Source: an uncultured delta proteobacterium (GTDB lineage: Bacteria; Desulfobacterota; RBG-13-43-22). Taken from it: a DNA stretch of 64,000 nt. The DNA lies in assembly GCA_963746605.1 (NCBI GenBank), contig CAVVCH010000061.1, positions 134,441 to 198,440 on the forward strand, written 5' to 3'. Under the pieces are notes generated by a model. That model made no database searches. It was not told the origin of the DNA and was given only the letters and a program-made list of their open reading frames with translations. The translations under genes and the position numbers were made by a program. The first letter of the stretch is position 1; each line of letters starts with the position of its first letter. Shown here in pieces: positions 32,090 through 37,032 of this stretch.

Positions 32090-33430
32090 TTAGAATTTAA
32101 ACAGCTTTTCTATCAGTTGGGATTTCATCAGATCCCCTTCGATTTTCAGTTTTCCGCTAGTGAAGGCCTGCATGGCCGGCAATTGACCGGTGATCAGCCC
32201 CAGAAAGTCGGCATCGGCCATGTGGATGGTGGTGGTCGGCTTTGCATGAAGCCCCGGGCCTACGGTGCAGGAGGCCTCTTTGATCACCGCCTGCCAATCC
32301 CCGCCCTCGGGCCCGGAGATCCGGAACTGGAAGACCACGTCCACCCCGGCCGCTTTTTCGGCCTGAAAGGCCTCCGGCATCCGCTCGAACACGGACCGAA
32401 CCGTAGGTCCGGAGGGTGAGGATTTGGCCGCCTCCGGCTCCCTTTGCCCGCCGGTCAGCATTTCTCCCAGGGCCGCGGTGGCATTGTAAAATTCCTTTCC
32501 TCCTACGAGGGTGTTGATGGCCGTCCAATTTTGGTGAACCTCTTCCGGGGTAGGGACATTCCCTCCTTCACCGATCAGGATTCCCGGCCCGGAAACGATC
32601 GCCGCCTTGTTGAAATACCCCGCCCCGGCGTTGAAGACCTGGCCGGTCTCGGCGCAGGCGGCGGAGCAGAGATAGATGACCAAGGGGGCCGACGAATTCG
32701 GGTTTAAGTCTTTCAAAGAGATCGGGGGGCAGGATGTCTTCGGTCAGGCGAGTGGCGGCGATAGGGGCCACGGTGTTGACCTTGATGTTGTATTTCTCGC
32801 CCTCCAGTTTCAAGGTGTTCATCAAGCCCACCAACCCCAGTTTGGCTGCCGAATAGTTGGCCTGTCCGAAATTGCCGAACAAACCGGCGGCCGAGGTGGT
32901 CAGGACGATTCGGCCGTATTGCTGTTCCCGCATCTGCCGGAGCGCCGGCCGGGTGACATAATAGGCCCCATCCAGATGGACGGAGAGGACCTGATTCCAA
33001 TCCTCGGAGTCCATCTTGAGCAGGGTCTTGTCCCGGAGGATTCCGGCGTTGTTGATCAGGATATCCACGCGGCCAAAGGTCTCCAGGGCTTTCTCGACAA
33101 TGGCTTCGCCGCCTGCGGGAGTGGATACGGAATCGTAACTGACCACGGCTTCGCCGCCCAGGGCCTTGATTTCTTCAACCACCCTGTCAGCCGGACCGGT
33201 AGAACCAGTGCCGGAACCGTCCCGGGAGCCGCCCAGATCGTTCACCACCACTTTCGCTCCGCGCTTGGCCAAGTCCAGGGCATAGGTCCGACCCAGACCG
33301 GCCCCGGCCCCGGTGACGATCGCCACCTGACCGTCAAATCGGATTTCGGCCTTTTTTTCCTCTGTTGTCGGCGGCTTGACCGGCAGAGGCACGGCTTTCC
33401 AGAAGTAGCCGGAGAACCCGCGGTCCTTAT
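32090..33430 (-). repeat. paralogous SDR+SCP2 module; partner at ~34926..36210 in the adjacent gene (~85-90% amino-acid identity)
   Basis: Near-identical stretches, e.g. RVDILINNAGILRDKTLLKM...[66 protein letters not shown].RLKPE, occur in both proteins. Confidence 0.6.
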
Positions 33431-34826
33431 CGGTGTACCGCTTCCGGAAAGAGAGCCTGACCGGCTGGCCGACCCAGACTTCGGCCAGTTCGCAATCGGT
33501 AAAATCGGCCATGAACCGCCCCCCGTCATCAAATTGGATCATGCCGTAGACTGCCGGCGGGTCGACAGAAACCGTCAACAGGTCTCCGGTAAAGGTCTTG
33601 ATAAAGGCCGATTTTTCGGCAAACTCGTACTCTTCCTGGGTATGGAATTTCCGGCAGTCCGGGTTGACGCAGATATCCATTTTTGGAAACTGAGGGGTGC
33701 CGCAGGCCGTACAGCGGCCGCCCACCAGGCCGAGGATCATCTGCCGTTTCCGATAGAGGACGGTCATGGCCGTCTGCGTGGGGGCCTCGGCCCTGATCCC
33801 CATCTCGGTCTGGATCAGGTCTCGGAACTTGAGGAATTTGGGATATTGGTCGATCGTCTTTTTGTTCTTCAGAGACCCTTCAATCCCCACCCGAGGGGCT
33901 AGATTTAGGATATGCTCGGTCACCCGGAAATACAGCGCGTCGCAGCCCTGTCCGAAACCGGCCAGCAGGATCCGATCTCCAGGCTTGGCCTGCTCCAGGG
34001 CTTGGGTAAACAGGACCAGGGGATGGGCGGCGCCGGTTTCCCCGCAGACCTCGTGGAGGTTGTCCTGAACTTTTTCCGGAGCAGCCCCCAGTTTCTTGGC
34101 GATGTTGCGGTGTTCGGCCTTGAAGAAGCAGGGGAAAACAAGCTTATCCACGTCGTCCATGGTGATGGACAGTTTTTCAGGAGACCGTTTACCGCCGCGG
34201 GGATGATCTTGGCCATATCCTTCATCCCGGACCCAGCGCTCTTCCCACATGTAATCGTATTTGTTTTGGGAGCCGCGGTAGTGATCGATAAAATCCAGAG
34301 AGAGGCTATAAGAACCCAGGAATTCAGCAATTACGCTGCTATTGCCGACCAGGAGTGAGGCGGCCCCGTCGCCGAACCACATCTCATAAAAATAGGCGGC
34401 CTTGGTCTCCCGCTTGTCGGCCGCGGTGACCAGGATGCTTTGGGGGACGCCTTCCCGAAGGGAGTTCAAGGCGGTGATCAGCGCGCTGGTGCCGGAACGA
34501 AGGGAGGCGGTAACGTCCTGGGTCAGCAGGTCATCCCGAAGGTTCAGGGCCGTTTTGACAATAGCGGCGTTGAGGCGGTCGGCAAAGGGCAGCGTGGTGG
34601 AGCACAGGTAGAGGGCCTCCATCGCCGATTTATCCGCTCCCTTCAGGCAGTCCTGCGAGGCGGCAACGGCCATGGTCAGGCTGTCTTCATCCCAGTTGCA
34701 GAAAGAACGCTCACCCTGGGCGACCATGACGATGGCCGGGGCAAACCAGCCCATTTCCTGAAAGATGCTCATGCGGTTTAGACGGAGCCGGGGAAGGTAG
34801 CCGCCGTAGGATACGATGCCGATCAT
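32090..34826 (-). pseudogene. four-domain fusion (HMG-CoA-synthase-like + DUF35 + short-chain dehydrogenase + SCP2 sterol-carrier), interrupted by a +1 frameshift at the G5 run 32683-32687 (ORFs 32568..34826 and 32090..32716)
   Basis: N-terminal MIGIVSYGGYLPRLRL is the HMGCS start. CTACGT...NPDCRKF...VWVGQPVRLSFRK is DUF35. TGAGAGLG...YSAAK is SDR. The C-terminus continues in the other frame as PLVIYLCSAACAETG...GKLKIEGDLMKSQLIEKLFKF (SCP2). Deleting one G restores EFVGPLVIYLC, matching the paralog RLKPEYVTPLVLYLC. Confidence 0.75.
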
Positions 34827-34925
34827 GGGACCTCCTTAAAATTCAAATCCGAAATTCGACGCACGAAACTCGAAACAAAAAACAATATTCAAAATTCAAA
34901 TGACCGAAACAACTTCACCTCCCGA

Positions 34926-37032
34926 TCAGAACTTAAAAAGTTTTTCTATGAGCTGGGATTTCATCAGGTCGCCTTCAATTTTCAGTTTGCCCGAGGTGTA
35001 GGCCTGCATGGCCGGCAGTTTTCCGGCCATCAAATCCAGGAAATCTTCGATCCGACATTTTAATGAGGGTCGTCGGTTTTTCGTGGAGCCCCGGGGTGGT
35101 AGTACAGGTCGCGTCTTTGATGGCGGTAAACCAATCTCCCCCGCCCGCTCCGGAAATCCGGAATTGAAAAACCACGTCCACCCCGGCGGCCTTGTCGGCC
35201 TGAAAGGCCCGGGGCATCTCATCAAAAACCGACCGAACGGTGGCCCCGGGGGCCTCGACCGGCGCCGCCTCGGTTGGGGAGGGGGGGCCGGTCAATAGGA
35301 CGCCCAAGGCCTCGGTGGCATTGTAAAATTCCCGGGCCCCGGTCATCCGGAGAATGTCCGGCAGGCGGGCGGAAAGGCTCTCGGGAGAAGGGATCTGGTG
35401 CCCGTCGCTGAGCATTACCCCGGGACCGGAAAGTACGGCGGCCCGATTGAAAAAACCCATCCCGGCATTATAGACCGCGCCGCTCACCGGGCATTGTTCG
35501 GCGCAGAGGTAGAGGACCAGCGGGGTTACGTATTCGGGTTTGAGCCGGGCGAAAAGATCGGGGGGCAGGATGTCCTCGGTCAGACGGGTGGCGGCGATGG
35601 GGGCCACGGCGTTGACCTTGATGTTGTATTTTTCGCCCTCCAGTTTCAACGTGTTCATCAAGCCCACTAACCCCAGCTTGGCCGCCGAATAGTTGGCCTG
35701 CCCGAAATTGCCGAACAGACCGGCCGCCGAGGTGGTCAGGACAATTCTTCCGTACCCCTGTTCCCTCATCCTTTGGAAGGCTGCCCGGGTTACGTAGAAG
35801 GCCCCGTCCAGATGAACGGCCCGGACCTGTTCCCAATCCGCTTTCTCCATTTTAAGCAGGGTCTTGTCGCGCAGGATGCCGGCATTATTGATCAGGATAT
35901 CCACGCGGCCAAAGGCTTCGACGGCCCGCCGGGTGATGGCTTCCCCGCCTTCCGGGGTCGATACGGAATCGTAGCTGGCCACGGCCTCACCGCCCAGGGC
36001 CATAATTTCCGCAACCACCCGGTCCGCCGGACCGGCCGATCCGGTCCCGGATCCATCCCGAGCGCCGCCCAGGTCATTGACCACCACCCGTGCGCCTCGC
36101 CGGGCCAGTTCCAGGGCGTAGGCCCGGCCTAACCCGGCCCCGGCGCCGGTGACGATGGCCACCCGGCCGTCCAGGCGAATCTCCATCTTTGGGGTCTCCC
36201 CATATTCGAAGATTCCCTGGTCAATGACCACCTCGCCTGTCTCGGCGTTGATGACCCGCCAGAGGGCCTTCCCTTCGTCCACCCGCCAGATCTGGGTTTT
36301 GATGGCGTTCCCGGGATAAAGCGGGCTGCGGAAACGATTGGCCATCCGTCGTACCTTCTCCGGGGCGCCCGGGACCAGTTGCCGGATCAAGGCCCGGGAA
36401 GCATAGCCGTGGGTGCAAAGGCCGTGCATGATGGGTCGGGTAAAACCGGCCGTCTTGGCAAATTCCAAATCCACGTGCAGGGGGAAGATGTCCCCGGAAA
36501 GACGGTAAATCAGCGGCTGATCGACCGGGGGGGTAGCCGGCACCTCAAAATCCGGAGGTCGTTCCGGGAACGAAATGGCATTCTTAGGGGCATCTTCCCC
36601 GCCAAAGCCCCCGTCCAAACGTGCCAAGACGGTAACGATGCTGGTGAAAAGTTTTCGGCCGCCTTCATTCCGGGTGTCAAACTCGGCCACGATCAGCGCT
36701 CCCTTGTCGGGGCCTTTGTCGTAATAATGGGTGATGGCCCCCTCGGTTATCAGTTTTCCCTCCGAAGGGATGGGCTGGTGAAAGATCAACTCCTGCCCGG
36801 CGTGAAGAATTCCCGCCAGGTTGACATTGCTGATGGAGGCCAACTCCGGCATGAAATCGTACAGCGTCACAATGCCAAAGCTCGGCAAGACCCTGAGGTC
36901 CTTTTCGTAACAGTAGTCTAGATCGGAAAAACCCGCACCCACGCCCAGGGCATAGAGGACCGTGTCCTTCCAGGTATAGTCCTTGGAAAAGGGGCCGATC
37001 TTTTTTCCAATGCTGTCCAAGTTAAGGGCCAT
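34926..37032 (-). pseudogene. MFE-2-like fusion (2x MaoC hot-dog hydratase + SDR + SCP2), C-terminal SCP2 end displaced by a 1-nt insertion near 35058 (ORFs 34975..37032 and 34926..35225)
   Basis: N-terminal YTWKDTVLYALGVGA is the hydratase-2 N-domain, then TGAGAGLG...YSAAK (SDR). The tail ...TLIKMSD then shifts to EDFLDLMAGKLPAMQAYTSGKLKIEGDLMKSQLIEKLFKF, identical in sequence to the paralog's C-terminus. Confidence 0.75.

Follow-up and report, generated by a model that had tools for sequence, protein, structure and literature searches.

Two adjacent genes on the minus strand of a 64,000-nucleotide stretch of DNA from an uncultured delta proteobacterium of the Desulfobacterota, a bacterium of the sulfate-reducer type (contig CAVVCH010000061.1; the whole stretch is referred to here as the window), which we name gene A and gene B, end in a common module made up of an SDR domain and an SCP2 domain. 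We propose that the two genes are an ancient pair, that their modules have been homogenised by episodic gene conversion across the gene family, that gene A would serve as the scaffold of a beta-oxidation assembly and that the frameshifts interrupting both genes in the window are probably consensus errors of the assembly. To this explanation we assign a probability of about 0.8. An earlier note on this DNA had interpreted the pair as a recent tandem duplication and as a hotspot for gene conversion and assembly collapse. We argue here that the region is neither a fresh duplication nor a mis-assembly hotspot and that its broken frames should be annotated as probable consensus errors.

The gene pair and its shared module

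Gene A (32090..34826, minus strand) and gene B (34926..37032, minus strand) are each represented in the window by two open reading frames (ORFs), the second of which carries on the first in a different frame: 34826..32568 (752 aa) and 32716..32090 (208 aa) for gene A, and 37032..34975 (685 aa) and 35225..34926 (99 aa) for gene B. Deletion of one inserted base from each gene restores single proteins of 911 aa (A) and 701 aa (B), the same lengths as those of intact orthologues. According to Pfam, the domains of gene A are, in order, a PhlA/HMG-CoA synthase (HMGCS)-like domain of the KASIII/HMGCS type, DUF35 (a zinc ribbon with an OB fold), SDR and SCP2, and those of gene B are the N-terminal domain of MFE-2 hydratase 2, MaoC, SDR and SCP2. 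The description given in the earlier note, of neighbouring genes with common SDR and SCP2 segments and with differing N-terminal partners, is borne out by these assignments; the module is C-terminal in both genes, which lie on the same strand, and the two copies are in direct orientation. The identical protein run that it quoted is present in both genes, and the longest peptide common to the two modules is 48 aa in length.

The module copies occupy 32090..33347 in gene A and 34926..36183 in gene B (minus strand; the gene B copy carries repeat families D1-D4), starting slightly inside the limits of 33430 and 36210 that had been claimed for them. Each copy consists of 418 codons, a stop codon and one inserted base; the two are direct repeats on the DNA with an offset of 2836-2837 nt, and the last 418 residues of the two proteins align without a gap. 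With the extra bases removed, the copies are 74.2-74.4% identical at the amino acid level and 74.2% identical at the nucleotide level, well short of the 85-90% first reported, and the SDR Rossmann core alone (module residues 1-230) attains 83.5%, with 47.8% for the middle segment (residues 231-320) and 76.5% for the SCP2 segment (residues 321-418). Alignment of the two genes by blastn gives 81.3% identity over 674 nt and 75.6% over 316 nt (E 1e-158), so the similarity is far above chance. Between the copies the synonymous divergence (dS) is 0.94 and the non-synonymous divergence (dN) is 0.18, with an omega (dN/dS) of approximately 0.2 (Nei-Gojobori method, NG86); identical nucleotide runs reach 28 nt at most, and the G+C content at third codon positions (GC3) is approximately 74% in both. 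Low nucleotide identity, which the earlier note had itself named as the mark of ancient paralogy, is thus what is found, and the divergence between the copies is not that of a recent event.

The pair also stands intact in related genomes, within an operon whose order is TetR regulator, gene B, gene A, SCP2-type thiolase, a small ORF and acyl-CoA dehydrogenase (ACAD). The same order is present in L001, a relative at approximately 89% nucleotide identity, and in L002 and L003, two metagenome-assembled genomes (MAGs) of Desulfomonile tiedjei, with intact gene B (701-711 aa) and gene A (910-911 aa) throughout. A search with the repaired gene A protein returned more than 100 full-length homologues of 907-913 aa with the same domain set and 64-89% identity, the few named ones being Desulfobacterota MAGs; they are annotated merely as 'SDR family NAD(P)-dependent oxidoreductase' or 'HMG-CoA synthase/dehydrogenase'. 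Scanning one genome per GTDB species, we found 338 stretches that encode the N-terminus of gene A and fetched 80 of these loci; gene B lies directly upstream of gene A in nearly all of the fetched Desulfobacterota loci with enough flank, among them members of the Desulfomonilaceae, Desulfatiglandales, Syntrophales and Desulfobacteraceae. We take the operon to be ancient, conserved and widespread in the Desulfobacterota, and the duplication behind the present arrangement of modules is likely to be older than the divergence of several orders.

Some relatives carry shorter forms of gene A, in which the PhlA-like domain and DUF35 are joined to SCP2 without the SDR (602-614 aa; L066 6962-8806 and L077 7001-8809) or stand without both SDR and SCP2 (489 aa; L075 7001-8470), in each case with the thiolase following and no gene B upstream. 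The existence of these variants means that the domain shuffling proposed by the earlier note did occur, but in deep time and not as a recent event.

Probable gene conversion across the family

We compared both complete module copies from 49 loci and from the window (50 genomes, 100 copies), using neighbour-joining (NJ) trees built on approximately 418 columns with 200 bootstraps and a calibration for codon bias, in which the use of identical codons at identical residues is set against its expectation. The A and B modules of a single genome share between 0.60 and 0.998 of their nucleotides and between 61% and 99.8% of their amino acids, with a median amino acid identity of 73.7%; the median identities of A-A orthologues (68.6%) and of A and B modules from different genomes (66.7%) both fall under this value. 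Within-genome dS forms a continuum that runs from 0.00 (L052) through 0.08 (L060), 0.14 (L056) and 0.27 (L051 and L010) up to saturation in the Desulfomonilaceae, and the window lies in its mid-range. In the trees the modules cluster by genome or by clade and not by gene: the set of all A modules is monophyletic in 0% of the 200 bootstraps, many genome pairs are recovered at 90-100%, and no column of the module tells A from B across the 50 genomes. The cofactor and catalytic motifs of the SDR (TGxxxGxG, NNAG, Ser and YxxxK) are kept in 100 of the 100 copies.

The similarity within genomes is, moreover, unevenly spread along the module. In L009 and L010 the p-distance between the copies is 0.00-0.04 in the SDR, 0.25-0.42 in the middle segment and 0.12-0.16 in SCP2, and these two genomes, together with L031 and L051, show tracts confined to the SDR, with identical runs of 287-681 nt and identical-codon use in the SDR of 94-100%, against approximately 46% expected. 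Over the whole set the longest runs identical between A and B measure 867, 720, 681, 670, 569, 466, 354 and 287 nt, and the median is 23.5 nt, against the 28 nt of the window. The Desulfomonilaceae pairs use identical codons at the expected frequency throughout the module. We consider that episodic gene conversion between the tandem modules, acting across the family, probably accounts for this pattern, and that its tracts would as a rule take in the SDR Rossmann core, at times SCP2, and only rarely the module in full.

For the pair in the window the trace of such events is faint. The A and B modules of the window, L001, L006 and L007 form one group with 100% bootstrap support, within which the A modules of the window and L001 pair at 100%, as do their B modules; with the SDR part alone, the four modules of the window and L001 group together at 80%, which suggests a later event, restricted to the SDR, in the common ancestor of these two. 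Identical codons are used in the window at 62% of identical SDR residues, against 45% expected (n=189); in the middle and SCP2 segments their use does not depart from expectation. This residual synonymous similarity, found in the SDR part only, indicates that the window pair is probably an old and largely decayed conversion state. The last homogenisation would be old and common to the window, L001, L006 and L007, followed by the somewhat later SDR-only event common to the window and L001; because the orthologues pair at 100%, no conversion is placed in the window pair since its split from L001. Drift since then would have brought the copies down to 74% identity, a level at which neither further conversion nor assembly collapse is expected; the latter, of which the earlier note had warned, is not a realistic risk at this divergence. 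Its description of the locus as a conversion hotspot holds for the gene family, where dS extends from 0.00 to saturation and mosaic SDR-only tracts occur, and almost ceases to hold for the window today, in which no identical stretch exceeds 28 nt. In L001 (5771-7876 vs 8001-10736) the first 100 or so residues of the B module stand at a p-distance of 0.14-0.18 from the A modules, against 0.22-0.23 for the B module of the window, which hints at a small A-to-B conversion in L001 after the two lineages had parted.

Two other accounts of the shared module need to be weighed against gene conversion. A recent segmental tandem duplication, placing the SDR+SCP2 cassette onto a neighbouring gene in this lineage, would readily explain direct repeats 2836 nt apart, of equal length (418 codons) and with a 48-aa identical run; we nevertheless regard it as extremely improbable, given that the copies have 74% nucleotide identity, a dS of 0.94 and no identical run beyond 28 nt, that identical codons in the middle and SCP2 segments are only as frequent as expected at random, that both architectures and the operon are present in D. 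tiedjei and dozens of other Desulfobacterota and that each module of the window joins its L001 orthologue with 100% bootstrap support. An ancient duplication without conversion, in which strong purifying selection, shared codon bias or the co-adaptation of two interacting SDR domains would by itself account for the similarity and for the clustering by genome, is in keeping with the modest synonymous excess of the window taken alone (0.62 against 0.45), and it would fit both the strong constraint on the SDR catalytic core (column conservation 0.81-0.91) and the GC3 of approximately 74% in both copies. Selection at the protein level, though, cannot yield 94-100% identical codons and identical runs of 287-867 nt, as several genomes show, beside fully diverged middle segments; the continuum of dS from 0.00 to saturation and the clade-specific monophyly of A and B modules are equally hard to accommodate, and the saturated Desulfomonilaceae pairs show that codon bias alone produces no excess. 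We judge this second account very improbable.

Some points weigh against the conversion reading itself. Certain near-identical A/B pairs come from short-read co-assemblies, in which repeat collapse or bubble-popping could exaggerate identity, the trees are NJ trees on a few hundred columns, and values of dS near 1 are imprecise. The pattern is likewise seen in long-read MAGs (L010 and L056), at intermediate divergences and at the level of clades. Long-lasting conversion between tandem duplicates has been described in prokaryotic operons for the duplicated mtrA of methanogens (PMC4632066) and for RF1/RF2 (PMC4530459), and the present family resembles these in that paralogues within a genome are closer than orthologues between genomes, in its mosaic tracts and in its long persistence. 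What sets it apart is that homogenisation is limited to the C-terminal module of two domains that genes A and B have in common, the genes being multidomain and otherwise unrelated. The family would accordingly offer a natural series of conversion states, from a dS of 0 to saturation, confined to that module, and such a series should be useful for estimating the tract lengths and identity thresholds of conversion in bacteria.

Gene B as a putative permuted MFE-2

The N-terminal region of gene B (aa 1-279; 36196..37032, minus strand) is assigned by Pfam to MFE-2_hydrat-2_N and MaoC_dehydratas and matches the hydratase 2/MaoC structures 3khp and 1s9c. The best PDB matches of the protein are the MFE-2 enzymes of the yeast C. 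tropicalis, Drosophila, human and rat (E 1e-129 to 1e-88), and those of its SDR are 2et6, 3oml, 1zbq and 1gz6. The match to the yeast enzyme spans residues 289-565 of gene B, from which it follows that the weakly conserved middle segment corresponds for the most part to the C-terminal subdomain of the MFE-2-type dehydrogenase. The hydratase motif YRLSGD[IV]F.LH keeps its Asp and His in all 67 of 67 orthologues, and it has F-[AQP] where the canonical hydratase 2 motif has N-P.

By homology, gene B is predicted to be a domain-permuted MFE-2 that unites hydratase 2, an SDR of the (3R)-hydroxyacyl-CoA dehydrogenase type and SCP2. It has all three parts of MFE-2 (HSD17B4; Fox2), the SDR of the module carries the 12-residue signature and the NDLGG loop of the NAD type found in that enzyme, and the combination of an SCP2 domain with an SCP2-type thiolase nearby is reminiscent of MFE-2 and SCPx. 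The order of the parts is different: hydratase, dehydrogenase and SCP2 in gene B, as opposed to dehydrogenase, hydratase and SCP2 in MFE-2. Yeast MFE-2 also has two duplicated dehydrogenase domains; here the second dehydrogenase, with a second SCP2, resides on a separate scaffold protein, gene A. Unlike the peroxisomal MFE-2, moreover, gene B belongs to a bacterial host and to an operon with a TetR regulator. In the literature we found no description of this fusion architecture in sulfate reducers, nor of MFE-2-like enzymes in Deltaproteobacteria.

Gene A and the neighbouring thiolase

The first domain of gene A (33807..34826, minus strand) has the fold of PhlA and HMGCS, as judged from PDB alignments; its closest solved relative is PhlA (9skh and 5m3k; E 1e-39), followed by the archaeal HMG-CoA synthase 6esq_I (E 3e-28). 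The DUF35 region (33384..33755, minus strand) comprises a four-cysteine zinc ribbon and an OB fold (Pfam zf-ChsH2 and OB_ChsH2_C) and matches 6esq_E (E 3.5e-11) as well as PhlB. Structure-sequence alignments place Thr77 at the position of HMGCS Glu82, Leu109 at that of Cys114 and Pro232 at that of the active-site His, and these three replacements are invariant in 12 homologues of gene A, as are the zinc-ribbon residues C372, C375, C386 and C391. Gene A also scores under the curated NCBIfam cut-offs for HMGCS (190.7 bits against 244 for NF003274 and 132 against 353 for TIGR00748). Condensation depends on the Cys and Glu of HMGCS, neither of which PhlA possesses (PMC6392133), and because both have been lost here, the HMGCS-fold domain of gene A is predicted to be catalytically dead and unable to make HMG-CoA. 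In the same study PhlA and PhlB were assigned structural roles, with PhlB, a DUF35 protein, bridging the dimers of PhlA and of PhlC, the active subunit with the thiolase fold (PMC6392133).

The thiolase that follows gene A (30870..32078, minus strand; 402 aa) is intact and of the SCP2/DUF35 type according to Pfam, NCBIfam and PDB matches. It exceeds the cut-off of NF004810 (672 against 403 bits), matches 7yvy, 6esq_A (E 1e-50), BbsB (7pxp_C) and SCP2-thiolases, and contains the motifs NFCASG, with the nucleophilic Cys, HDCF and CFGHP. The locus thus encodes together an HMGCS-fold domain, a DUF35 with its four-Cys zinc ribbon and OB fold, and an SCP2-type thiolase, which is the three-part gene neighbourhood of the archaeal thiolase/HMGCS/DUF35 complex (6esq), and each part aligns to the corresponding chain. 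Gene A departs from the HMGCS of that complex in having none of Glu82, Cys114 and the His, and in being fused to DUF35 and to SDR+SCP2. It is closer in this regard to the PhlACB complex of Pseudomonas (5m3k, 9skh), where PhlA, a structural partner, likewise has neither the catalytic Cys nor the Glu. Points of difference from PhlACB are the thiolase, which is much nearer to CoA-dependent thiolases than to PhlC (E 1e-50 against 1e-18), a beta-oxidation operon context in place of phloroglucinol acylation, and the extra SDR and SCP2 domains.

A further parallel is provided by Sulfolobus, in which a ketothiolase, an R-specific SDR reductase and a MaoC dehydratase are brought together by DUF35 into a single complex (bioRxiv 10.1101/2024.07.05.601840). 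The fatty-acid-synthase complex of Sulfolobus acidocaldarius has the same set of activities as the operon described here, where they are partly fused covalently; its proteins are separate and NADPH-dependent, and its cycle is closed by an enoyl-CoA reductase. The operon has instead an ACAD, an NAD-type SDR loop, SCP2 domains and a PhlA-like domain, a combination which points to the degradation direction.

Proposed function

From these assignments we infer a scaffolded beta-oxidation assembly. ACAD (29219..30361, minus strand; 380 aa, intact, assigned by Pfam and NCBIfam) would make the enoyl-CoA, which the gene B product would hydrate before oxidising the resulting (3R)-hydroxyacyl-CoA; the thiolase would dock on gene A, by way of its dead HMGCS-fold domain and its DUF35, and cleave the product. 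Gene A would be the scaffold that also brings a second dehydrogenase and SCP2, and gene B, gene A, the thiolase and ACAD would between them provide every step of an R-specific cycle of beta-oxidation acting on an acyl-CoA that is bulky or hydrophobic. The presence of SCP2 domains and of a TetR regulator points to a hydrophobic substrate and to inducible expression, and the NDLGG loop, which MFE-2 also has, points to the use of NAD+ in the oxidative direction. What weighs against this part of our proposal is that complex formation, substrate and direction (oxidation or its reverse) are inferred from homology and gene order only. Should the complex form, the operon would be a candidate route for the anaerobic degradation of hydrophobic acyl-CoAs; as it stands, a widespread and uncharacterised Desulfobacterota operon, annotated merely as 'SDR family oxidoreductase', appears to join peroxisome-type MFE-2 chemistry with the thiolase/DUF35 scaffold principle of the archaeal mevalonate and fatty-acid pathways and of PhlACB.

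A more specific and rather speculative possibility is that A, B and the thiolase form a beta-oxidation metabolon nucleated by DUF35, in which the MFE-2-type SDR domains of A and B pair with one another. Such a metabolon, which hundreds of Desulfobacterota species would possess, would be the bacterial equivalent of two other systems, the peroxisomal one of MFE-2 and SCPx and the archaeal fatty-acid-synthase complex built on DUF35, and it might act on a specific class of bulky lipids under anoxic conditions. If the SDR domains do pair, recurrent conversion of the SDR core alone might be tolerated or even favoured, since it would keep that interface and the catalytic core of the two domains matched as their substrate-binding C-terminal segments drift apart.

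Frameshifts in the operon and beyond

Indels were called relative to L001 by gapless codon reading. As the earlier note had observed, each of the two module copies carries an indel, which proves to be one uncompensated single-base insertion in either case. That of gene A (32688..32696, near 32692, minus strand) splits the gene inside the SDR domain, where the window reads GAATTCGTCGGCCCCC and L001 reads GAATTCG-CGGCTCC; that of gene B (35045..35050, near 35047, minus strand) splits SCP2, the window reading GAT CGA A GAT TTC and L001 GAC CGG GAC TTC. Gene A contains in addition a compensated +1/-1 pair (34182..34214, minus strand), 32 nt apart, which leaves the ORF unbroken and scrambles 10 conserved codons, turning the conserved AKIIPxAVNGLF into GQDHPRGGKRSP; a pair of this kind is odd for random error. 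At the head of the operon, the TetR-family regulator (37078..37725, minus strand; assigned by Pfam) has a -1 near 37102 that changes and shortens its C-terminus (215 aa, against 224 aa in L001), and the small conserved ORF between the thiolase and ACAD (30514..30867, minus strand), which belongs to no Pfam or NCBIfam family and is 113 aa long in L001 and 103 aa in L002 (103-113 aa in relatives), is interrupted by an indel near 30717. In neither the thiolase nor ACAD does an indel disturb the reading frame; the thiolase differs by just one codon, in frame, at its 3' end. Downstream of ACAD lies a SnoaL-like gene (28931-29209, minus strand) in which an extra T in a T-run removes the stop codon (GKF* becomes GKFLGSQ...) and which has an internal deletion of approximately 110 nt relative to L001 14420-14530.

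Far from the operon, two genes on the plus strand are broken in the same manner. A single inserted base near 4797 divides dsrA (4370-5681) into ORFs of 153 aa and 282 aa, and the repaired protein of 436 aa gives a gapless end-to-end alignment with DsrA (2xsj_A, E 8e-243). The second is dsrJ (12410-12804), part of dsrMKJOP (9749-14759), whose product is a triheme cytochrome c bearing three CxxCH motifs; the gene is shifted near 12665, where '...AADGKT' in one frame is continued by 'YDMSLQNTCMKCH...' in the following one. With dsrA, dsrJ, the TetR gene and the small ORF all broken by single-base indels, the indels of A and B are not tied to the duplication. A frame-switch scan with a codon model revealed no further uncompensated internal shifts, the other switches coinciding with stop and start codons.

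In our view the frameshifts of A and B quite probably arose as errors in the assembly consensus. Error is the most likely origin because the orthologues of both genes are intact in relatives and because omega between the window and L001 is approximately 0.15 (0.145 for A and 0.162 for B), and the shifts are read in this way also because the core dissimilatory sulfite-reduction genes dsrA and dsrJ are split as well. The alternative is that the frameshifts are real and the operon is being inactivated in this strain, so that A and B would be young pseudogenes, possibly through redundancy. Several observations favour such decay and hence count against our reading: six single-base indels (in TetR, in B, three in A and in the small ORF) fall within approximately 8.8 kb, a region that also holds the stop-loss and the deletion of the SnoaL-like gene; three of the five uncompensated shifts lie in these 8.8 of 64 kb, a mild enrichment (p of approximately 0.02 by our own binomial estimate); and gene B has 41 lineage-specific amino acid changes in the window against 25. 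Set against this, the thiolase and ACAD in the middle of the operon are intact, omega remains low, gene A has no excess of window-specific changes (29 against 32), one indel pair is exactly compensated, and dsrA and dsrJ, otherwise extremely well conserved core genes, are broken likewise. Other MAGs of relatives that derive from Nanopore data show similar isolated +1 shifts at different positions: L004 and L005, the two closest GTDB representatives and both from the Microflora Danica (MFD) series, each have one +1 in gene A, at codons 655 and 871, unlike the positions in the window, and the MFD-series MAGs are of Nanopore origin (PMC12313526). On balance we regard real decay as unlikely, and consensus error as the better explanation of the broken frames.

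Programmed ribosomal frameshifting was also considered and rejected, as the shift site is not conserved, the orthologues are single ORFs (907-913 and 701-711 aa) and the other MAGs shift at different codons. No common sequence motif was found at the indel sites, only some of which are in homopolymers, and an exact-sequence look-up of the window thiolase and ACAD, made to find an independent assembly of the same strain, returned no record. A scan of 28700-38100 for promoters and terminators found promoter-like sites at the level expected from shuffled sequence and no informative signal in the interval separating B from A. Genes suspected of being split at 19863/20440 and 24955/25395, among others, proved to be ordinary neighbours (an ABC ATPase and a carboxyltransferase; ruvA and ruvB), and apparent indels relative to L001 at codons 125/130 and 606/607 of A and 582/586 of B were aligner artefacts that disappeared in gapless codon reading. 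The genes rpoB, rpoC, fusA and tuf (48172-60923, plus strand) are long intact ORFs, from which it follows that the indel rate of the assembly is not uniformly high.

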